A stretch of DNA of 64,000 bases. Origin: Flavobacteriaceae bacterium. Lineage in GTDB: Bacteria > Bacteroidota > Bacteroidia > Flavobacteriales > Flavobacteriaceae. Shown here piece by piece: positions 4,145 to 64,000 of this stretch (position 1 is the stretch's first letter; every line of letters begins with the position of its first letter). The notes below the pieces were generated by a model, which worked only from the letters and a program-made list of their open reading frames with translations, searched no databases and was not told the DNA's origin. Made by a program: the position numbers and the translations under genes. The DNA is taken from positions 1,945-65,944 of the forward strand of contig JAOZVI010000002.1 of assembly GCA_029938265.1 (NCBI GenBank), read 5' to 3'.

Positions 4145-6199
4145 ATGAATTCATTTCAACAACAAATCACACAAGGAATTCCGGATATATTACCGAATCT
4201 AAAACCCTATAATAAAAGTTTAAATCACGCTCCCAAGCGAAAAGATATATTAAACACAGCCGAAAAAGAGCTGGCTATTCGAAATGCATTGAGATATTTT
4301 GATAAAGAGCATCATTTGGTTTTGGCAAAAGAATTTGCTGATGAATTGAACAAATACGGTAGAATTTATATGTACAGATTTATACCAGATTATGAAATAT
4401 ACGCCCGTCCAATTGATGCATATCCGGGTAAAAGCAATCAGGCAAAAGCCATTATGCATATGATTCAAAATAATTTGAATTTTTCTGTGGCTCAACATCC
4501 TCATGAATTGATAACCTATGGTGGTAATGGTGCTGTTTTTCAAAACTGGGCACAGTATCTATTGACCATGAAGTATTTGTCCGAAATGAATGATGAACAA
4601 ACTTTGGTGATGTATTCCGGACATCCAATGGGTTTATTTCCTTCACATAAAAATGCGCCGAGGGTAGTTGTTACCAATGGTATGATGATTCCAAATTACT
4701 CTAAACAAGACGACTGGGAAAAATTCAATGCCTTGGGAGTTACCCAATATGGACAAATGACAGCGGGTAGTTTTATGTATATCGGTCCGCAAGGAATTGT
4801 ACACGGTACAACGATAACCGTTCTAAATGCAGGAAGGAAAATTGCAAAAAATGGTGAGAATCTGGCAGGTAAGATTTTTTTAACTTCTGGTTTAGGAGGC
4901 ATGAGTGGTGCACAGCCAAAAGCTGGAAATATTGCAGGCTGCATTACTGTTTGTGCCGAAATAAATCCTAAAGCCGTTTACACTAGACATTCGCAAAATT
5001 GGGTTGACGAAGTTATTGAAGATCTGGATGAGCTTGTACAAAGGGTTAAAAAAGCTAAAAATAATAAAGAAATCGTTTCCATTGCCTATCAGGGAAATAT
5101 TGTAGATGTATGGGAAAAATTTGATATAGAAGATGTTTATATCGATTTAGGAAGTGATCAAACTTCTCTGCATAATCCTTGGGCTGGGGGATATTATCCT
5201 GTTGGTTACAGTCTTGAAGAAGCAAATGAAATGATGACAAACAATCCTGAGAAATTTAAGGAAAAAGTTCAGGAATCACTACGTCGTCAAACGGATGCTA
5301 TCAACAAACATACAGCAAAAGGCACTTACTTTTTTGATTATGGAAATGCATTTTTACTAGAGGCTTCGCGTGCAGGTGCAGATATATTTTTAAAATCACC
5401 AACTTTTCAAAATCGCAAAAACCCTCCAATTTCAAGAGGAGCAATTGGTGTTAATGAATTTGCCTATGCATCCTATGTTGAAGATATCATGGGACCCATG
5501 TGCTTTGATTTTGGTTTTGGGCCTTTTAGATGGGTTTGCGCTTCCGGTGACCCAAAAGACCTGGCTAAAACAGATCAGATTGCTACCGAAGTTTTAAATG
5601 ATTTGATGAAAAATTCTCCTGCTGAAATTCAGCAGCAAATGAATGATAATATTCAATGGATAAAAGGCGCTCAGGAAAATAAATTAGTTGTAGGCTCACA
5701 AGCAAGGATCTTATACGCTGATGCCGTTGGAAGAATTAAGATTGCCGAAGCTTTTAATCTTGCCATTAAGAATGGTGAATTATCGGCACCTGTTGTTTTG
5801 GGTAGGGATCATCATGATGTATCCGGCACAGATTCTCCTTATCGGGAAACCGCTAATATTTACGATGGATCACAATTTACAGCCGATATGGCTATTCATA
5901 ATGTTATAGGCGATAGCTTTAGAGGTGCAACCTGGGTTTCTATTCATAATGGCGGTGGAGTTGGATGGGGAGAAGTTATCAATGGGGGCTTTGGTATGGT
6001 TCTTGATGGTACTGAGGAAGCAAGCAAACGATTAAAATCAATGCTATTTTGGGATGTTAACAATGGAATTAGCAGACGAAGCTGGGCTCGCAATAAAGGT
6101 GCTGTAAATACAGCAAAACGAGCTATGAAGATGGAACCAAATTTAAAAATTACGATACCCAACACTGTTGATAATACATTGCTTGAAAATTTATTCTAA
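4145..6199 (+). CDS. hutU: Urocanate hydratase (long Bacteroidota form)
   Basis: ELITYGGNGAVFQNWAQY, GQMTAGSFMYIGPQGIVHGT, GLGGMSGAQPKA and GPFRWVCASGDP motifs. Confidence 0.9.
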   Translation: MNSFQQQITQGIPDILPNLKPYNKSLNHAPKRKDILNTAEKELAIRNALRYFDKEHHLVLAKEFADELNKYGRIYMYRFIPDYEIYARPIDAYPGKSNQAKAIMHMIQNNLNFSVAQHPHELITYGGNGAVFQNWAQYLLTMKYLSEMNDEQTLVMYSGHPMGLFPSHKNAPRVVVTNGMMIPNYSKQDDWEKFNALGVTQYGQMTAGSFMYIGPQGIVHGTTITVLNAGRKIAKNGENLAGKIFLTSGLGGMSGAQPKAGNIAGCITVCAEINPKAVYTRHSQNWVDEVIEDLDELVQRVKKAKNNKEIVSIAYQGNIVDVWEKFDIEDVYIDLGSDQTSLHNPWAGGYYPVGYSLEEANEMMTNNPEKFKEKVQESLRRQTDAINKHTAKGTYFFDYGNAFLLEASRAGADIFLKSPTFQNRKNPPISRGAIGVNEFAYASYVEDIMGPMCFDFGFGPFRWVCASGDPKDLAKTDQIATEVLNDLMKNSPAEIQQQMNDNIQWIKGAQENKLVVGSQARILYADAVGRIKIAEAFNLAIKNGELSAPVVLGRDHHDVSGTDSPYRETANIYDGSQFTADMAIHNVIGDSFRGATWVSIHNGGGVGWGEVINGGFGMVLDGTEEASKRLKSMLFWDVNNGISRRSWARNKGAVNTAKRAMKMEPNLKITIPNTVDNTLLENLF

Positions 6200-6209
6200 A
6201 TTTAAGGTT

Positions 6210-6782
6210 ATGAGATTCTTTAAAGTATTTCCAATTTTATTATTTTTTTTGATTGCCTCATGTTCATCAGTTAATGTTAACTCAGACTACGAAAAGAATA
6301 CTGATTTTTCTAATTATAAATCTTATGCTTTTTATAAAAAAGGAATCGATAAAGTTGAAATTTCTGATCTGGATAAGCGTAGAATACTAAGGGCAATAGA
6401 AGCCGAAATGCTAGCTAAAGGATTTGTTAAATCAGAAGATCCGGATCTGTTGGTTAGTATCTTTACTAAATCTCGTGAAAAAATTGATGTTTATAATAAT
6501 AATTATTATGGCTGGTACCCATGGTATTACGGCTATGGCTATGGTTATGGCGGCTATGGAATGGGATATGGCTTTGGTTATAACAATGTTTCATCTTCAA
6601 CAGAAGGAACGCTTTTTATTGACCTGATCGATGCACATAAAAAAGAACTTGCCTGGCAAGGTATGGGAACAGGAATACTTTCAAAGACTAAAAGTATAGA
6701 AAAAAAAGAAGCAAGGATCAGTGAATTCGTATCTAAGATAATGATACAATACCCACCAGTAATTGATGAATCAAAAAAATAA
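6210..6782 (+). CDS. DUF4136-like lipoprotein with an internal Gly/Tyr-rich segment
   Basis: Start moved to the ATG at 6210, giving MRFFKVFPILLFFLIASCSS (lipobox). The track ORF begins 42 nt upstream, inside the hutU 3' end. Confidence 0.6.
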   Translation: MRFFKVFPILLFFLIASCSSVNVNSDYEKNTDFSNYKSYAFYKKGIDKVEISDLDKRRILRAIEAEMLAKGFVKSEDPDLLVSIFTKSREKIDVYNNNYYGWYPWYYGYGYGYGGYGMGYGFGYNNVSSSTEGTLFIDLIDAHKKELAWQGMGTGILSKTKSIEKKEARISEFVSKIMIQYPPVIDESKK

Positions 6783-6789
6783 GGTGTCT

Positions 6790-8706
6790 TTATAGCACTT
6801 CAAGTTTGTTATGTATTTCTTCCCACTGCTCCATTAATTCATCAACTTGGGTTTTCTTTGCCTGATAATTATTAAAAAAATCTTTATCAGAAGAAACTTT
6901 TTCAAAATTTTCATATATTTCAGCATCGTCATTTAATATATGTTTTTCTAATATTGAAATTTTAGATTCAATTTTATTCAATTTATTCTGTAGTTGTTTT
7001 TTTTGTTTTAACTCCAGATAACTTTTTTTACCCCCTGAATTCTTTTTTTTATCAATCTCATTTTCTTTTAGTGTACGCATCTCTACTTCACGCATATCAT
7101 CAAGATCATGTTGTTCTAGAAAATAGTTAATGTCACCCAAATACTCTTTAATATTTCCATCTTTAAATGAATAAACTTTTTCTGTTAGATTTTGTAAGAA
7201 ATCTCTATCATGAGATACTAAGATCAAGGTTCCTTCAAATTGCTGTAAAGCTTTTTTTAATACATTTTTTGATGCTATATCTAAATGATTGGTTGGCTCA
7301 TCCATTATTAGAACATTAAAAGGTGCCAGCAACATTTTACATAGAGCCAGGCGATTTCTTTCACCTCCAGAAAGAACCTTCACTTTTTTTTCAACATCAT
7401 CTCCCCTAAACAAAAATGAACCAAGCATATCTCTTACTTTAATTCTGTTGGAGTCATTAGCAGCTTCCTCCATAGTTTGCAAAACAGTAAGGTCACCTTC
7501 TAAATAATCTACCTGATTTTGAGCAAAATATCCTATTTGAACATTATGTCCTAGTTTTAATTTTCCATCAAAATCAATGTCACCAACAATCATTTTAGCC
7601 AAGGTAGATTTTCCTTGTCCATTTTGACCGATAAAAGCAATTTTACTATTCCGTTCAATTAAAAGATTTACATTTTCTAAAACCTGATTATCTCCATAAT
7701 TTTTAGCAACATTTTCAGCTTCTATCACAACTTTACCAGGTACTATAGATACCGGGAAACGTACATTCATAACAGCATTATCTTCAACATCAACTTCTAT
7801 CCGTTCTACTCTGTTTAATTTTTTAATTAATGATTGAGCCATTGATGCTTTATTAGCCTTAGCCCTAAATTTTTCGATTAGTTGTTCGGTTTGTTTGATT
7901 TCTTTTTCCTGATTTTTTTGGGATTGTAATTGTTTTTCTGTAATCTCTTTTCTCAAGAGTAGATATTCGGAGTAAGGCTTTTTGAAATTATAAATTTTCC
8001 CTAAAGAAATTTCAATCGTGCTATTGGTTACATTGTCCAAAAACATTTTATCATGTGACACCATCATTATAGCGCCGTTGAAGTTTTTTAAAAAATTTTC
8101 AAACCAAATAATTGATTCTATATCCAAATGATTGGTTGGTTCATCTAATAATAATATATCATGATTTTGTAAAAGTAATTTTGCCAATTCAATTCTCATC
8201 CTCCAACCTCCTGAAAATATGTTGGTAGGCATATTAAAATCTTTTGACTGAAAACCTAAACCCTGTAGTATCCTTTCGGTTTCTCCTTGATAATTATAAC
8301 CGCCTATCAATTCATAACGGTGTGATAAATCATCTAATTTATGCATCAGATCATGATAATATTCACTTTCATAATCCGTTCTTTCAGCCAACTCAATATT
8401 AATTTCCTCCAATTCTTTTTCAATAGTTTTAATCTCTTTAAAAGCTTCATAGGCTTCTTCTAAAACTGTTCTACCTTCCTCAAAATCAATATCCTGCTTT
8501 AAAAAACCAATACTGATATCTTTTTCAATAGCAATGCTTCCTTTATCATATTCCTGCTCACCGGAAATTATTTTTAACAAAGTAGTTTTCCCGGCTCCGT
8601 TTTTACCAACTAAACCAATTCTATTACCGACATTCAATTTAAATGTTATACCCGAGAACAGATCTTCTCCGGAAAAAGAAACCGTTAAATCATGAATATT
8701 TAGCAT
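6790..8706 (-). CDS. ABC-F family ATPase (two ABC domains, C-terminal coiled coil)
   Basis: Two Walker A motifs (GKNGAGKTT, GQNGQGKST). Two LSGG signatures (FSGGWRMR, LSGGERNR). No transmembrane domains. Confidence 0.9.
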   Translation of the reverse strand: MLNIHDLTVSFSGEDLFSGITFKLNVGNRIGLVGKNGAGKTTLLKIISGEQEYDKGSIAIEKDISIGFLKQDIDFEEGRTVLEEAYEAFKEIKTIEKELEEINIELAERTDYESEYYHDLMHKLDDLSHRYELIGGYNYQGETERILQGLGFQSKDFNMPTNIFSGGWRMRIELAKLLLQNHDILLLDEPTNHLDIESIIWFENFLKNFNGAIMMVSHDKMFLDNVTNSTIEISLGKIYNFKKPYSEYLLLRKEITEKQLQSQKNQEKEIKQTEQLIEKFRAKANKASMAQSLIKKLNRVERIEVDVEDNAVMNVRFPVSIVPGKVVIEAENVAKNYGDNQVLENVNLLIERNSKIAFIGQNGQGKSTLAKMIVGDIDFDGKLKLGHNVQIGYFAQNQVDYLEGDLTVLQTMEEAANDSNRIKVRDMLGSFLFRGDDVEKKVKVLSGGERNRLALCKMLLAPFNVLIMDEPTNHLDIASKNVLKKALQQFEGTLILVSHDRDFLQNLTEKVYSFKDGNIKEYLGDINYFLEQHDLDDMREVEMRTLKENEIDKKKNSGGKKSYLELKQKKQLQNKLNKIESKISILEKHILNDDAEIYENFEKVSSDKDFFNNYQAKKTQVDELMEQWEEIHNKLEVL

Positions 8707-42837: not shown

Positions 42838-43011
42838 GATTGTTAAATTTTATCTTAGTTATTTAATAGTGTTTAATTTATTTGAAATTTTCTTAATTGT
42901 ATTTAGAAATGAAATAAATTATTTTTAATTTCGTTCTTTTATACAAATCAATCTAATTTCAATTGTCTTTTTATTTGATTTGTCAATTGTTTTAATCTAA
43001 ATACAACAAGA

Positions 43012-43083
43012 GCCAATGACGGGATTTGAACCCGTGACCTCTTCCTTACCAAGGAAACGCTCTACCCCTGAGCTACACCGGCT
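43012..43083 (-). tRNA. tRNA-Thr (anticodon GGT)
   Basis: Manual cloverleaf: acceptor GCCGGTG/CATTGGC (two G-U pairs), anticodon loop TTGGTAA, T-loop TTCAAAT. Confidence 0.85.
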
Positions 43084-43216
43084 TTTGCTTAATTGGATCA
43101 AACCGGACTCCTCATTTTTTACTTTTGCACCCATGTACAAAATTACCTGGGACAGGTTTTACTCTTACAACTTAATCTTTCTATCATATTTTCATCATAA
43201 TATGTTGTAAAAAATG

Positions 43217-43289
43217 AGCGGGAGACCGGGCTCGAACCGGCGACAATCAGCTTGGAAGGCTGAAGCTCTACCAACTGAGCTACTCCCGC
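43217..43289 (-). tRNA. tRNA-Gly (anticodon TCC)
   Basis: Acceptor GCGGGAG/CTCCCGC, anticodon loop CTTCCAA, T-loop TTCGAGC. Confidence 0.9.
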
Positions 43290-43317
43290 ATTGTTTTGAA
43301 ATATATAAAATATATTG

Positions 43318-43398
43318 TGGGGAGAGAAGGATTCGAACCTTCGAAGGTTGCCCAACAGAGTTACAGTCTGTCCTCGTTGACCGCTTGAGTATCTCCCC
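43318..43398 (-). tRNA. tRNA-Tyr (anticodon GTA), class II with a long variable arm
   Basis: Acceptor GGGGAGA/TCTCCCC, anticodon loop CTGTAAC, 12-nt variable region, T-loop TTCGAAT. 81 nt. Confidence 0.9.
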
Positions 43399-43425
43399 AA
43401 TATATTTATTTTTTTTCAAAGAACG

Positions 43426-43499
43426 AGCCGATAGAGGGACTCGAACCCACGACCTGCTGATTACAAATCAGCTGCTCTAGCCAGCTGAGCTACATCGGC
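43426..43499 (-). tRNA. tRNA-Thr (anticodon TGT)
   Basis: Acceptor GCCGATG/TATCGGC, anticodon loop TTTGTAA, T-loop TTCGAGT. One mismatch in the T stem. Confidence 0.85.
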
Positions 43500-59601: not shown

Positions 59602-61506
59602 TTATCTCAATTTATAAGCATCAAATTTTTCTAAAGTATCCGGATTAACTACCTCTACTTCTATGTCTTTACCATTAACCTGAAATAATACTAAAGCATT
59701 TTGAGTAGAAAAACCTGTAACTTTATCTGTCCATGGAGTCTGATCCTGAGCGTAATAAGGAGCACCTGCGGCACCATTATTAATTTGATAAATTGTTCTG
59801 CTTAATTTAATCTTTTCCGGTATGTAATTTTCAGGGTAGATATTGGTTTCTGGTCCAATTTCAGTTCTGCAATAATTATGTTCATCACCGGTTAAAATAG
59901 CAATTACCTTAGTGCTTTTATTTACAAAAAGATCCAACAACTGGTCTCTTCTTTCAATAATTCCTTTATCAAGTGGTTTTCCTGCAACCCATGATCTGGG
60001 TCCATTTTTCCCATTATACCACATATCATCACCTACATGACCTCCATTGGGGAAAAAAGGTGTATGTTCAGTAATAAAAATATGATCAATATTTTTATCT
60101 TTTTCAAGCTTATGGATTGTTTCAGTAACCCAATTAAACTGATTGTCCATTATATAAGCGTGCAATCCTCCACTTGTAAATGGTATTAATCTACCTGAAG
60201 GCGCATAAAAATAATTTGAATTCATCACAACTACAGCAACGTTATCATAGGTGTAATAAAAAACATTTTCCTCATATGAAGGAAAATCAATTTTATTTGG
60301 ATCAGGATCATATTTTGCTCCATCCTCACTTGAAGGTCCGTTTTTTGGATTTACAAAATTATTTGCAAAAACAACTTCAGCCGACTCCGTTTCAAAAGGA
60401 AATCTATCAACATAAGCCCTGAAATTATTTTCTTTACCTTCAAAGATCTTACTTAAAGCTTCATGATTTCCCATACTTATATAAACAGGGAAATAATGTG
60501 TAAAAGGTTCAATTGCTCTTTTCCAGTTGGCATATTGCAAATTCATTTGATCTTTATCAGTTAAATATCCATTGATCAGATCTCCGGAAAATTGCATAAA
60601 ACTTATATTTTTATATTTTGCCAATGCCATGATCTTTTTCATGATATAAAAATTTACTCCATGAATATTTCTTTCTCCCCCTCCTTTACCATTTCTGGAA
60701 TCACTTGCATATGCAAATAAAAATGGTTTTCGTGCACCTGAATTATGTGCTGTTCTAAAACTGTAATCCTGAGTAATATTACCAACACTTACTATGTAGT
60801 TATACTCTTTATCAGCTGATAATCCTGTGATCTTGATCTCGTGATGTGTACCATTTTTAGAAGTATGATCTTTACCATCAATAGTAATTTTAACTATAGC
60901 GGACATATTTGTTTCAAGAGAAATTGTAGCTCCGTCAGCAGTTACTAAATTTATAAACGGACCTTCAATAATAGTGTTATCTACTTCAAAAATGCCATCT
61001 TTAAATAAAAAAGAAACTTTTCCATCATATAAAATATCACCCTTTTCATTGAGTACCCGATAACCAAGTGTTCCCATTCCACTCTTCTCCCATCCGATCA
61101 TATCGAATGTTCCTCTCATTGATTTAATATTAATATTGGTCATACCCTTACTAATTGTTGATAATTGCCTGAAATAAACTGGCATTGGGTGTTTTGAATC
61201 TCCATAAGGTATAAATCCGTAATATAAAAAACCACTAAAATCTGGAATTCCAAAATTAAATTTTATTCCTTTGGCAGTACCTGCCGGACTACCTTTTAGA
61301 TTAGTTAAAGTATAATCGGCTTTATGATCTCTCTCATAGTACCTTATACTGTCTTTTTCTATATAATACTTACCTTGTTCATCTTGATGAATATTGGTGT
61401 AAACCGAAGGAATATTAGTCTCTTTATTAATTTGACCAATTGTTTTGTAGGAAAAAAGTATTAAAATAAAAATACTTAAATACCTGGTTGTTAAGCTAAA
61501 TTTCAT
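59602..61506 (-). CDS. Secreted metallophosphoesterase (calcineurin-like)
   Basis: Signal peptide. GDLINGY, GNHE, TEH and GDEHNY motifs. Confidence 0.75.
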   Translation of the reverse strand: MKFSLTTRYLSIFILILFSYKTIGQINKETNIPSVYTNIHQDEQGKYYIEKDSIRYYERDHKADYTLTNLKGSPAGTAKGIKFNFGIPDFSGFLYYGFIPYGDSKHPMPVYFRQLSTISKGMTNINIKSMRGTFDMIGWEKSGMGTLGYRVLNEKGDILYDGKVSFLFKDGIFEVDNTIIEGPFINLVTADGATISLETNMSAIVKITIDGKDHTSKNGTHHEIKITGLSADKEYNYIVSVGNITQDYSFRTAHNSGARKPFLFAYASDSRNGKGGGERNIHGVNFYIMKKIMALAKYKNISFMQFSGDLINGYLTDKDQMNLQYANWKRAIEPFTHYFPVYISMGNHEALSKIFEGKENNFRAYVDRFPFETESAEVVFANNFVNPKNGPSSEDGAKYDPDPNKIDFPSYEENVFYYTYDNVAVVVMNSNYFYAPSGRLIPFTSGGLHAYIMDNQFNWVTETIHKLEKDKNIDHIFITEHTPFFPNGGHVGDDMWYNGKNGPRSWVAGKPLDKGIIERRDQLLDLFVNKSTKVIAILTGDEHNYCRTEIGPETNIYPENYIPEKIKLSRTIYQINNGAAGAPYYAQDQTPWTDKVTGFSTQNALVLFQVNGKDIEVEVVNPDTLEKFDAYKLR

Positions 61507-61541: not shown

Positions 61542-61952
61542 TTAAAAAGATTTAAAAACTCTGGCTAATGAAAATCCTGGTGCATCTACTTGCAGATCTA
61601 AAAAATACCCAAAGGGAGTTTGAGCAACTTCATATCCAACATTTTTTAATCTTTCTTCAACACTGTTAAAAATTCTTTGAGTTGTATCCGGATCGGCTTT
61701 ACTTTCAGACAAATGTGCAAATGAATGTAAAACTACTTTTTTTGAATTGTTTTTGCCACAAACCCATTTAATATTCTTTAATAGTTTTTTAGAAACTTCA
61801 GCCTCTCTTTCAATATCATTTTCTTCAACCTGAACAAAGGCTGTTTGCACATTCTCAAATGAGGCAGGAACATTATTTACTTCCGCCATTTCCAATGTTT
61901 TTAAAGTTGGCGTATAAGCAAATATTTTACAATAGATCAGTAATACTTTCAT
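61542..61952 (-). CDS. Stand-alone homologue of the archaeal ThrRS N-terminal editing domain (tRNA-Thr_ED, DTD-like fold)
   Basis: MKVLLIY... first strand, VVLHSFAHLSESKADP and TPFGYFLDLQVDAPGFSLARVF. These align by eye with the motifs I recall from the archaeal editing domain (..LLIH.., PFAHLSS, PFGYYK). Confidence 0.6.
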   Translation of the reverse strand: MKVLLIYCKIFAYTPTLKTLEMAEVNNVPASFENVQTAFVQVEENDIEREAEVSKKLLKNIKWVCGKNNSKKVVLHSFAHLSESKADPDTTQRIFNSVEERLKNVGYEVAQTPFGYFLDLQVDAPGFSLARVFKSF

Positions 61953-62068
61953 AGAATTAAGGTTTAAAATTTAGAGACTTTTATAAAAGACTCATTTAAT
62001 ACAAAATAAAGATAATACAACTATTCAAAGTATATTATCTTTATTTATAATTATTTAATAAAAAGTAT

Positions 62069-62407
62069 TTAATGGTCACATAAATTATCACCATCCTGTA
62101 GTTGATCAGCTAAATATTTTTCCACAAGCACTTCGGGTTTATCAGAATCAATTCCCATAAAAACTTCGATATTATTTTGGGTAAAAACATCCTTTGCTTT
62201 TCCACCCATACCTCCTGAAATAATCGTACTGACTCCTTTTTCAGCTAAAAACCGTGGATAAGTTCCCGGCTGATGAACAGGAGGGGTGAAAAATTCAACA
62301 TTTACTATTTTTTGATCTTCTGTCTCAACTACAGCAAATTGTTCACTATGACCAAAATGCTGACATAATTTTCCGTTGATTGTCGGAACTGCAAATAATT
62401 TTTTCAT
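62069..62407 (-). CDS. NifB/NifX/NafY-type (dinitrogenase FeMo-cofactor-binding family) small protein
   Basis: CQHFGHSEQFAVVE...FLAEKGVSTIISGGMGGKA...IEVF pattern, 112 aa. Confidence 0.75.
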   Translation of the reverse strand: MKKLFAVPTINGKLCQHFGHSEQFAVVETEDQKIVNVEFFTPPVHQPGTYPRFLAEKGVSTIISGGMGGKAKDVFTQNNIEVFMGIDSDKPEVLVEKYLADQLQDGDNLCDH

Positions 62408-62443: not shown

Positions 62444-62767
62444 TTAATTCTTTTTAAAAGGATCCCAAAATATTAAAACTAATGCGCCATTTTCTGATTT
62501 AAAAGGTCCGTGCTCATCTCCAGAAGGAAAAATCTGATACGATCCAACAGGAAAAACTTCACCATCACTCATATATTCACCTTCTAACACAAAATGTTGC
62601 TCAGCAGTTATATGAGAATGTGAACCCATATGGAAACCTTTGGGTAATTTTAACAAAACCGTTTTACCATTTTCACCATCACGCAAGACTTTACTTTTTG
62701 TGCCTTTAGGGTAACCTTCAGCATCTTTCCAATTCAAATTTTCGAGTAAATTCATTTTTTTTCTCAT
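62444..62767 (-). CDS. Cupin domain protein
   Basis: GSHSHITAEQHFVLEGE ... GDEHGPF (two cupin motifs), 107 aa. Confidence 0.7.
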   Translation of the reverse strand: MRKKMNLLENLNWKDAEGYPKGTKSKVLRDGENGKTVLLKLPKGFHMGSHSHITAEQHFVLEGEYMSDGEVFPVGSYQIFPSGDEHGPFKSENGALVLIFWDPFKKN

Positions 62768-62805: not shown

Positions 62806-63246
62806 TTAATACTTCACCCTACAGCATTCTCCATGTCCAAAACCTCCGGCAAGATTCAATAAGTTCTTTGAATAACATTCCGGGCATTGGGTCATTGTCT
62901 CATTAACACTTAAATTATACATATGTCCACAATCAACACATTGAATAATATTTCTTCTAAAATGTATATTACCTCCATAAATTCTAAGCGACTTTCCATA
63001 AAAAATAAATTCTGCCATTTTCTTTCTAGATTTTTCTATCAATCTACTAAATGTAGGTCGGGATATTTCCATTTCTGCAGCAGCTTTCTCATGTGACATA
63101 CCTATAAGGTCAGCTAAACGTATCGCTTCAAACTCATCCAAATTAAGGATAATTTTTTCTGTGGATCTGTCTGATCTGCCAAACGGTCTAAACTCTGTAA
63201 AAAAAGGAGGCTGGTGTACAATTCTATTATTTTTTGGACGAGGCAT
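62806..63246 (-). CDS. DUF134 (UPF0251) family putative DNA-binding protein with a C-terminal Cys-rich extension
   Basis: MPRPKNNRIVHQPPFFTEFRPFG...LDEFEAIRLADLIGMSHEKAAAEMEISRPTFSRLIEKSRKK (sigma-70 region-4-like HTH), then CVDC...CPEC...ECC. Confidence 0.75.
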   Translation of the reverse strand: MPRPKNNRIVHQPPFFTEFRPFGRSDRSTEKIILNLDEFEAIRLADLIGMSHEKAAAEMEISRPTFSRLIEKSRKKMAEFIFYGKSLRIYGGNIHFRRNIIQCVDCGHMYNLSVNETMTQCPECYSKNLLNLAGGFGHGECCRVKY

Positions 63247-63353: not shown

Positions 63354-64000
63354 TTAATTTAGTTGATATGCCTTCCATTTTAGAGCAAAATCCTCATTGA
63401 TCAAAAAAGAGGCTTCTTTTTTATTTTCTGGATATGAATGAAAAGGATAGACCTCTTTTGTAGTATGATTACCCAACCAACCTGATTCTTCACTAATTGA
63501 TTGTGATTTAATTGATTTCTCATCCAATCTCTTATCCAAAGCAATTGAAAAGAAATCTCTTACCAATTGATCAGATCTACCTAAATTGCCATAATGATCA
63601 ACTTCAGGTTCTAATGCATAACACCATACTCCTCCCGCTACTCTGTTAGATAGTACCGCATTTTTGATGGCTTTATTTCGAAGTTGATTATCATACTCAC
63701 CAGCAAGCATTATACAAGGAATGCTTTTATTATTGACTGAAATATCATCAATATTACCACCTCTAATATTGGCAAATGCGATGACTCGATCTGGCTTAAA
63801 ATTTGAAAAATTAGTACTAAAAACTCCGCCTGCTGAATAACCTCTCATTACAAAAGGCAAATTACTAATATTTGAAAGATCATTTATTTCAGAAATCATT
63901 TCCAATGCTTTTACCAAAGCATCACCACTACCACCAGAAGCTTCAGCATAATAGGGAGATGAATCATCAAACGTTTTAAAATATACAGCCAAAATCGCCA
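63354..64000 (-). CDS. Alpha/beta hydrolase / esterase. The N-terminus lies beyond the right window edge.
   Basis: Nucleophile elbow GYSAGG. The frame remains open to position 64000. The TTG at 63992 used by the track is probably not the true start. Confidence 0.6.
   Translation of the reverse strand, partial: AILAVYFKTFDDSSPYYAEASGGSGDALVKALEMISEINDLSNISNLPFVMRGYSAGGVFSTNFSNFKPDRVIAFANIRGGNIDDISVNNKSIPCIMLAGEYDNQLRNKAIKNAVLSNRVAGGVWCYALEPEVDHYGNLGRSDQLVRDFFSIALDKRLDEKSIKSQSISEESGWLGNHTTKEVYPFHSYPENKKEASFLINEDFALKWKAYQLN

Follow-up and report, generated by a model that had tools for sequence, protein, structure and literature searches.

A free-standing homologue of the archaeal threonyl-tRNA synthetase editing domain in a Flavobacteriaceae bacterium lies on a separate branch with altered acyl-pocket residues

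Introduction

What a free-standing copy of the archaeal threonyl-tRNA synthetase (ThrRS) editing domain might do in a bacterium is the question raised by a gene at 61542..61952, on the minus strand, of a 64,000-nucleotide stretch of DNA from a Flavobacteriaceae bacterium (the window). The gene encodes a protein of 136 amino acids, here called ThrED, with a DTD-like fold. A preliminary description, made from the letters of the window, considered such an archaeal-type module unexpected in a flavobacterium, and suggested a function other than tRNA deacylation, for example binding of a small molecule in the context of the neighboring NifX-like and cupin genes. To our knowledge, the characterized members of the DTD fold are all translation proofreaders.

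The window itself is a modest object, adding one more family member, in an unusual host lineage and with a minimal version of the gene cluster. The branch to which ThrED belongs (termed 'HS-type' below) is of wider interest, since it has, without exception, the opposite charge at the site where the archaeal domain grips its substrate by the amino group. It also occurs commonly in sulfate reducers, in Bacteroidota from sediment, and in some archaea. Should this branch turn out to deacylate a new class of aberrant acyl-tRNAs, it would provide a quality-control step specific to anaerobic life, and should it be a ligand-binding part instead, it would offer a handle on the function of ORP-like gene clusters. 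Cultured carriers exist, so that direct testing is possible.

The archaeal domain has been described in considerable structural detail. Seven side chains lie within 6 Å of the scissile bond, namely Pro80, Phe81, Ala82, His83, Tyr120, Lys121 and, from the partner subunit, Glu134, and the protein meets the RNA, at the terminal adenosine (A76), through residues 117-120 (Ahmad et al., 2015). The catalytic group is the 2'-OH of A76 (Ahmad et al., 2015). Glu134 acts across the subunit boundary to hold the substrate's α-NH2, and Lys121 positions the catalytic water (Ahmad et al., 2015). Mutating Lys121 to Met severely compromised three archaeal domains because the catalytic water was displaced, the Y120A and E134A mutants retained both activity and specificity, and DTD naturally carries Met at the position of Lys121 (Ahmad et al., 2015). 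Specificity and catalysis were found to rest on main-chain atoms and on the 2'-OH of the tRNA (Ahmad et al., 2015). The archaeal editing domain by itself is able to act on whole tRNA, and U73 is the discriminator that it reportedly prefers.

Results and Discussion

ThrED is a free-standing homologue of the archaeal ThrRS editing domain

The ThrED protein starts with MKVLLIY and contains LHSFAHL at residues 75-81 (HSFAHLS at 76-82), TPFGYFL at 112-118 (PFGYFLDL at 113-120) and an arginine at 131, and the three motifs on which the preliminary description had based a whole-length likeness to the archaeal domain (MKVLLIY, FAHLS, and PFGY) are all present in the reading frame. When the protein was scanned against Pfam, it matched PF08915 (tRNA-Thr_ED) with an E value of 3e-39 and 134.7 bits, where the gathering cut-off is 30.2 bits, and the alignment ran from residue 1 to residue 135 of the protein, covering positions 1-136 of the 137 in the profile. 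The DTD family, PF02580 (Tyr_Deacylase), was not listed at E <= 0.1. A match to Phage_cap_P2 was dismissed as noise, being under cut-off at 20 bits. Among the NCBIfam models, those for archaeal ThrRS and for Ser-tRNA(Thr) hydrolase were matched in part, over the N-terminal portion only. With phmmer, ThrED found the ThrRS editing domain of Pyrococcus abyssi among PDB sequences at E ~1e-14, followed by those of M. jannaschii (3e-12) and A. pernix (~1e-3).

The structure of ThrED was predicted with AlphaFold2 from an alignment of 36 relatives, giving a model with a pLDDT of 95.5 and a pTM of 0.89. Foldseek superposed this model on the P. abyssi domain (1Y2Q) with a TM score of 0.94 and an rmsd of 1.5 Å at 32% identity, on 4RRF with a TM score of 0.92, and on DTD structures with TM scores of 0.6-0.7. 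The match to the P. abyssi domain is much closer than chance would give. Comparison of ThrED with its two closest orthologues, which are 84% and 79% identical, gave dN/dS values of 0.06 and 0.10, respectively. The gene is real and under strong purifying selection, and the original observation is therefore confirmed: ThrED is a free-standing homologue of the archaeal ThrRS editing domain, with the same fold.

The acyl pocket appears rewired across the HS-type branch

A search of 1.84 billion representative proteins with ThrED as the query returned 476 clusters at E <= 1e-3. The nearest clusters all comprised proteins of ~136 amino acids, and ThrRS-fused forms (570-640 amino acids) began at E ~1e-12, with ~30% identity. 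In a maximum-likelihood tree, fused and ThrRS-like sequences ('YP-type') were split from free-standing 'HS-type' sequences by a branch with an SH-aLRT value of 96. ThrED fell on the HS-type side, opposite the ThrRS-linked domains, and has the other marks of this type, being ~136 amino acids long, without an extra domain, and carrying the LHSFxHL motif and a basic residue at the Glu134 site. Net charge and pI did not separate HS-type from YP-type sequences.

Residues at the active site were tabulated for 17 YP/ThrRS-type and 49 HS-type sequences, using P. abyssi (Pab) numbering. Glu43, Asp46, Leu81 and the P-F-G loop are common to both branches, with P113, F114 and G115 of the window protein conserved in the HS-type sequences, and His83 is found in 17/17 YP-type and 48/49 HS-type sequences (His80 in the window protein). 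Other positions that are invariant or nearly so in the YP-type have been replaced. Pro80 (17/17) is Ser in 46/49 HS-type sequences, and Tyr120 (17/17) is Phe in 22, Ser in 12, Thr in 4 and Tyr in 1 (Phe117 in the window protein). Lys121, also present in all 17 YP-type sequences, becomes Leu in 20, Cys in 12 and Asn in 9, and is Lys in 0 of the 49 (Leu118 in the window protein). The residue at 134, Glu in 16/17 YP-type sequences, is Lys in 29 and Arg in 20 HS-type sequences, making the site basic in 49/49 (Arg131 in the window protein). The HS-type clade also has new residues of its own, Trp63 and Lys67 (47/49 each) and Thr112.

The preliminary description had given Y-K as the segment that follows PFGY in the archaeal domain, and had taken the F-L of the window protein for an altered site. 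Its account of the archaeal domain was accurate, with PFG[W/Y]-Y-K read in 17/17 ThrRS-type sequences compared with PFGY-F-L in ThrED, and the alteration (Tyr120 to Phe, Lys121 to Leu) is real and clade-wide, and is joined by the change of Glu134 to Arg. Of the active-site residues aligned, Lys121, Tyr120 and Glu134 are replaced, and His83 and the PFG loop are kept. Set beside the P. abyssi domain (PDB 1Y2Q, 2HL1, 3PD2-5), ThrED is alike in fold and length, and is conserved at His83, in the PFG loop and at the sites of Glu43 and Asp46. It differs in standing alone, with neither a synthetase nor an anticodon-binding domain attached, in its place on another branch of the tree, in having replacements at all of Lys121, Tyr120, Glu134, Tyr79 and Pro80, and in occurring in a host that edits with a bacterial N2 domain. 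With DTD (PF02580) it shares the superfold, the free-standing state and a non-polar residue at the position of Lys121 of the archaeal N-terminal domain (NTD), although it has no PF02580 match and its host has a separate canonical DTD gene.

These comparisons suggest that the acyl pocket has been systematically rewired throughout the HS-type clade on a kept adenosine-binding scaffold, the geometry of the pocket being that predicted by homology. The reversal of Glu to Lys or Arg is invariant, and must therefore have been selected. Since Glu134 holds the substrate's α-amino group, the reversal points to a substrate that lacks a free ammonium group, or that has an anionic or hydrogen bond-accepting group. 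Because the K121M mutation severely compromises three archaeal domains, the HS-type branch could be catalytically dead. On the other hand, DTD has Met at the Lys121 site and the 2'-OH of A76 is catalytic, and loss of the lysine alone is therefore no proof of lost deacylase activity. The preliminary description was thus right about the pocket, which is changed in the whole clade, but its step from the F-L segment to a function other than tRNA deacylation was overstated, since loss of Lys121 is by itself compatible with deacylation, given the Met of DTD and the activity of the Y120A and E134A mutants.

Residue 79, which is Tyr in 16/17 YP-type and His in 48/49 HS-type sequences, adjoins the pocket. 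According to the titles of PDB entries, design mutants alter residues 11, 42, 79 and 123 together, which suggests core packing for the residue at 79.

The host's canonical editing enzymes are in place

The assembled host genome (2.7 Mb in 255 contigs, 90% complete) contains one PF08915 gene. The host's ThrRS is a protein of 646 amino acids with TGS, tRNA_SAD editing region, catalytic core and anticodon domains, and the TGS and tRNA_SAD regions bear out the earlier expectation that a bacterial-type editing region would be found on the host's own ThrRS. A canonical DTD gene is also present (G000:C96). The canonical editing jobs are thus already covered in this host, by the N2 editing region of ThrRS and by DTD. 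Compensation for a ThrRS without editing was ruled out, since the host ThrRS keeps its editing region, and replacement of DTD by ThrED was ruled out because DTD was found in 9/9 carriers tested, which by record title come from at least six phyla. A link to SepRS and SepCysS in the host was likewise ruled out, as neither gene scored above cut-off in its genome. A search for fusions among relatives found one longer protein, of 267 amino acids, with no added Pfam domain, and domain fusion was dropped as a clue to function; among the relatives searched there was no fusion to a tRNA-handling protein or to an ORP component, and no anticodon-binding domain.

These results bear on the possibility that ThrED simply duplicates the host's own editing, as an ordinary trans-acting editor of Ser-tRNA(Thr) or of Gly- or D-aminoacyl-tRNA. 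Such a factor could in principle work with the altered pocket, since main-chain atoms and the tRNA 2'-OH carry specificity and catalysis in the archaeal domain, which keeps its activity and specificity with Y120A or E134A, and DTD functions with Met in place of Lys121; in addition, U73, the discriminator reportedly preferred by the archaeal domain, is present (by hand reading) in each of the two tRNA-Thr genes of the window. However, the severe effect of K121M in three archaeal domains, together with Lys in 0/49 clade members, the invariant reversal of Glu to Lys or Arg, the presence in the host of both a ThrRS with an N2 editing region and a canonical DTD, and the separation of the HS-type clade from all ThrRS-linked domains make ordinary trans-editing very unlikely.

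The family is widespread in anaerobes

The ThrED family comprises 3700 clusters at 90% identity, made up of proteins of similar length, some of which are named 'threonyl-tRNA synthetase editing domain-containing protein' by NCBI. Two strict peptide patterns identified ThrED in at least 566 species genomes, most of them Bacteroidota. Other carriers were labeled Chlorobiota/Ignavibacteria, Calditrichia, Aminicenantes, Cloacimonadota, Neomarinimicrobiota, Spirochaetes, Planctomycetia, Clostridia and Thermodesulfobacteriota, and the protein atlas added Binatota, Myxococcota and Nitrospirota. Among the datasets listed, the sources of the locus were DNA metagenomes, from hydrothermal vent and marine sediment, and included no RNA dataset. 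ThrED was found in 3/400 other genomes sampled from the host phylum (~1%), in 0/28 genomes sampled from the host family, and not in a same-genus genome. In the phylum of a Thermodesulfobacteriota carrier, 34/301 genomes (~11%) had a match. The family is therefore widespread in anaerobes, some archaea included, and unusual only for a Flavobacteriaceae-like host. The surprise expressed in the preliminary description was justified for this host family, but the family as a whole had been catalogued in 2017, and stand-alone copies, although scarce in the host phylum, are not rare.

That catalogue of free-standing 'tRNA-Thr-ED' proteins (Mukai et al., 2017; mBio 8:e00561-17, Text S1, Fig. S4 and data set) includes HS-type members with LHSFAHL or LHSFTHL, for example from Anaerophaga thermohalophila and Desulfobacterium autotrophicum and, among archaea, from Methanosphaerula palustris and a Thorarchaeote. 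Mukai et al. (2017) noted that the anticodon-binding domain is missing and that Glu135 (M. jannaschii numbering) is replaced, and proposed, from the Glu change alone, that the proteins hydrolyze aminoacyl- or hydroxyacyl-tRNA. Our observations differ from theirs in two respects. They described the other substrate-contacting residues as well conserved, whereas here Lys121, Tyr120 and Pro80 were also found to be replaced clade-wide, and their SepCysS-linked members are of the ThrRS-like type, whereas the host of ThrED has no SepRS or SepCysS above cut-off. A literature search found no paper characterizing the bacterial branch.

A proposed function for ThrED

The reading that we favor, to which we give slightly less than an even chance, is that ThrED may be a dimeric DTD-fold hydrolase of non-canonical acyl-tRNA, serving accessory damage control in anaerobes. 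The protein would act as a homodimer and would dock the 3'-terminal adenosine as the archaeal domain does, with hydrolysis being substrate-assisted, such that the ribose 2'-OH would activate a water molecule. The substrate would be an ester, whose acyl group would lack a free α-ammonium or would carry an anionic or hydrogen bond-accepting group, and would suit a pocket formed by Ser80, hydrophobic residues at 120-121, and Lys or Arg at 134 of the partner subunit. Hydroxyacyl-tRNA and acidic acyl-tRNA are candidate substrates, as is aminoacyl-tRNA that is N-blocked or aldehyde-modified; Ser-tRNA(Thr) would be an unlikely one, and the substrate is probably another. In the cell, ThrED might thus serve as an accessory clean-up deacylase of anaerobes, carried in the host genome in a small DUF134-cupin-NifX-like module.

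Several observations count for a hydrolase, namely the fold, the kept His83 and PFG loop, the separate branch, the coverage of canonical jobs by other enzymes, and the selection acting on the gene, to which can be added the independent proposal by Mukai et al. (2017) and the presence of other hydrolases in ThrED-bearing clusters, where genes for an ARMT1 damage-control phosphatase, an MBL-fold protein and a 4HBT thioesterase are found. Counting against it are a gene context that is not related to translation (MFS, UbiE-type methyltransferase, sirtuin, radical-SAM, NifX-like, and MinD-Fer4 genes), and the lack of an anticodon-binding domain or tRNA-handling fusion. A broader version of the same idea, possible though doubtful in our estimation, is that the DTD fold could have a fourth functional class, made up of the HS-type proteins and standing beside DTD, ATD and the archaeal ThrRS editing domain. 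Members of this class would deacylate acyl-tRNAs without a free α-ammonium (hydroxyacyl, and N-acylated or aldehyde-modified), would read the substrate through the invariant cross-subunit Lys or Arg, and would contribute to translation damage control in anaerobic bacteria and archaea, with genetic coupling to SAM methyltransferase and ORP-like modules.

ThrED has no obligatory partner gene

Gene neighborhoods were compared in 80 related loci of the FCB group, which were found with a 10-sequence alignment, are biased toward the query-like 'PFG-x-FL' subtype, and are not phylogenetically independent. At least one recurrent neighbor family is shared by 54/80 of these loci. An MFS permease gene lies immediately upstream and co-directional in 16/80, often overlapping the start of ThrED, and a gene for a UbiE-type SAM methyltransferase is immediately downstream and co-directional in 13/80, with immediate co-directional sirtuin genes in 5/80 and radical-SAM/wHTH genes in 6/80. 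The sole neighbor pointing to tRNA is a TrmO-like gene, located near ThrED in 9/80 loci. In a second set, of 30 Thermodesulfobacteriota loci, the order alpha/beta-hydrolase-ThrED-UbiE_MT-squalene/phytoene synthase was seen in 8/30. Thus, in the two locus sets examined, ThrED has no obligatory partner, and its commonest immediate neighbors are the MFS permease and the UbiE-type methyltransferase.

The recurrence of these two neighbors raised the possibility that ThrED hydrolyzes an adenosine ester of small-molecule kind, such as an aminoacyl- or acyl-nucleoside metabolite or antibiotic, together with the adjacent transporter and methyltransferase. Pairing with the methyltransferase in a second phylum, alongside the alpha/beta hydrolase and squalene/phytoene synthase, is consistent with such a role, as is the lack of a domain that binds the tRNA body. 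Against it, whole tRNA can be acted on by the isolated archaeal domain, and no small-molecule substrate of the DTD fold is known. Furthermore, neither the MFS transporter nor the methyltransferase adjoins ThrED in the window, and a close orthologue of the UbiE-type methyltransferase is missing from the host genome, so that we regard a small-molecule esterase as quite unlikely.

The remaining alternative takes up the suggestion of the preliminary description, and would make ThrED a non-catalytic ligand-binding or adaptor subunit of ORP-like metallocluster machinery, with the DTD-fold pocket re-used to bind an adenine nucleotide or cofactor, or else a partner protein. In locus L017, on a complete Bacteroidales chromosome, ThrED is located midway in a tightly packed one-strand string (DUF134-DUF5320-ferredoxin-NifX-MinD_Fer4-MinD_Fer4-NifX-Pyr_redox_2-ThrED-NifX-MBL-ARMT1-DUF4405-CGGC-CobA/BtuR), and in L038 it is embedded in a similar co-directional DUF134/NifX/MinD_Fer4 string. 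L035 has the order DUF134 ... Cupin_7 (106 amino acids)-ThrED-UbiE_MT-ArsP_2, and cupin genes are likewise found in L004 and in L037. Full ORP-like clusters with ThrED inside were found in L017, L035, L037 and L038, and DUF134 heads the large clusters in L017, L035 and L038. Counting the ORP-like set as NifX-like, MinD/CbiA-Fer4, CGGC, DUF5320 and a mixed Cupin_7/DUF59 group, at least one such gene was present in 28/80 loci. A binding role would also fit the loss of Lys121, which the archaeal domains need for activity, the new clade-specific surface residues Trp63 and Lys67, and the crystallization of P. falciparum DTD with ADP (PDB entry titles). However, 52/80 FCB-group loci have no ORP-like neighbor, none of the 30 Thermodesulfobacteriota loci has a labeled one within the 1.5 kb flanks covered, the relatives searched gave no fusion to an ORP component, and the invariant His83 and PFG loop are the substrate-contacting elements of the deacylase. 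A non-catalytic binder is therefore, in our view, unlikely. The proposed link to NifX-like and cupin genes holds to the extent that the same families recur in several Bacteroidales clusters, but not for the 52 loci that have none.

The window carries a small co-directional string

ThrED in the window is preceded by three genes, all on the minus strand. The first of this co-directional four-gene string encodes a DUF134 protein (62806..63246, 146 amino acids, Pfam E 8e-23), a presumed regulator that combines an HTH region with a zinc ribbon at its C terminus. It is followed by genes for a ChrR-like cupin (Cupin_7; 62444..62767, 107 amino acids, E 3e-14) and a NifX-like protein (Nitro_FeMo-Co; 62069..62407, 112 amino acids, E 9e-19), and then by ThrED. 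Downstream of ThrED, also on the minus strand, is a gene for a calcineurin-like metallophosphoesterase of 634 amino acids (59602..61506), and the gaps along the five genes are 38, 36, 116 and 35 bp. Membership of the metallophosphoesterase gene in the ThrED unit is doubtful, and no homologue of it was found near ThrED in the 80 related loci. The 116-bp spacer between the NifX-like gene and ThrED (61953..62068) is AT-rich. No convincing promoter or terminator was found, and scans for sigma-70 promoters, terminators and the TAnnTTTG motif of Bacteroidota did no better than chance and were uninformative.

These four genes resemble a reduced form of the more extensive Bacteroidales ORP-like clusters. 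The NifX-like protein matched NCBIfam MrpORP over positions 266-365 (E 2.6e-33), and is most like the C-terminal cluster-binding domain of MrpORP. Compared with the ORP clusters themselves (Desulfovibrio vulgaris Orp3/4/5/8/9, and MrpORP), the likeness lies in this NifX-like protein, which resembles the Di-Nase/NifX-like domain of MrpORP, and in the setting of Bacteroidales ThrED, which has for neighbors NifX-like proteins and MinD-like ATPases that bear ferredoxin motifs, the components reported for the Desulfovibrio ORP complex. The passages of the ORP paper that were consulted mention no ThrED-like member. Regulation of ORP is by sigma-54 and OrpR, in contrast to the window cluster, where DUF134 presumably takes this role. 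MinD-Fer4 ATPase genes are also absent from the window's cluster, none being found in the 56-64 kb region of the window or in the 5 kb past its end. In the host-family sample, NifX-like genes occurred in 1/60 genomes and DUF134 above cut-off in 2/60. These frequencies are as low as that of ThrED in the family, and still the three genes occur side by side in this module, an arrangement that would suit a ligand-binding ORP-like subunit.

The composition of the region is flat, with a GC content of 0.29-0.32, and a recent foreign island was rejected on this basis. The NifX-like gene is directly upstream of ThrED in the window and in L004 and L005, and outside the window such direct adjacency was seen, among the 80 related loci, only in the two closest relatives, which are Flavobacteriaceae MAGs. 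The gap between the two genes is 20-29 bp in these MAGs, compared with 116 bp in the window. In both MAGs an S9 peptidase gene follows downstream, and genes for PPK2 and a cupin are found on the upstream side. An S9 peptidase gene and an acetyltransferase gene are also located just past the end of the window, indicating that these loci represent one neighborhood that has been rearranged.

Genes around ThrED

The gene for the free-standing tRNA-Thr_ED protein (ThrED) is followed, 35 bp downstream, by a gene encoding a 634-aa calcineurin-like/purple-acid-type phosphoesterase that is predicted to be secreted (window 59602-61506, minus strand), and none of the 80 related loci has a homologue of this phosphoesterase close to ThrED. 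On the other side, the DUF134 protein (window 62806-63246, minus strand) carries a zinc-ribbon-like C-terminal segment at residues about 100-130, past its HTH region, as judged from weak matches to several Zn-ribbon families. The 212-aa ORF that is cut by the window end (window 63354-64000, minus strand) continues in the adjoining contig stretch (L121:299-1240) to a full length of 313 aa, and no Pfam family was found for it.

Related arrangements in other genomes

ThrED is absent from the DUF134/NifX-like cluster of another genome of the host's family (L084, G404:C1:2436000-2449000), where the gene order, on the minus strand at positions 4405-7077, is DUF134, two NifX-like genes, a 136-aa 4HBT thioesterase and an MBL-fold hydrolase. 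The slot occupied by ThrED in the window is filled there by a small acyl-(thio)ester hydrolase. Among 30 ThrED loci sampled from Thermodesulfobacteriota (L090-L119), 8 share a conserved four-gene order of alpha/beta hydrolase, ThrED, UbiE-type methyltransferase and squalene/phytoene synthase, and GNAT acetyltransferase genes adjoin in about three.

A sampling of genomes of a bacterial phylum gave weaker tRNA-Thr_ED matches (E about 1e-25) at G494:C1:1775727-1776143, G494:C1:1979586-1979975 and G533:C242:170-586. The open frames surrounding them span 655-1157 aa, and may represent bacterial copies of archaeal-type ThrRS or some other kind of fusion.

Other loci in the host genome

Outside the window, host contig C214 carries an MFS permease gene (L120:5281-6510) that ends 75 bp from the contig end. 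Its product is 84% identical to the MFS permease immediately preceding ThrED in one related locus (L052), and 41% identical to that of another (L009). The host genome assembly contains a single PF08915 gene, and the permease gene may mark a second, unassembled locus, or else a mis-binned contig.

The window also holds a tRNA-Thr(UGU)-Tyr-Gly-Thr(GGU) cluster of the usual type (43010-43499, minus strand). When acceptor stems were paired by hand, the discriminator read as U73 in the tRNA-Gly gene as well as in each of the two tRNA-Thr genes; the archaeal editing domain is reported to prefer this base.
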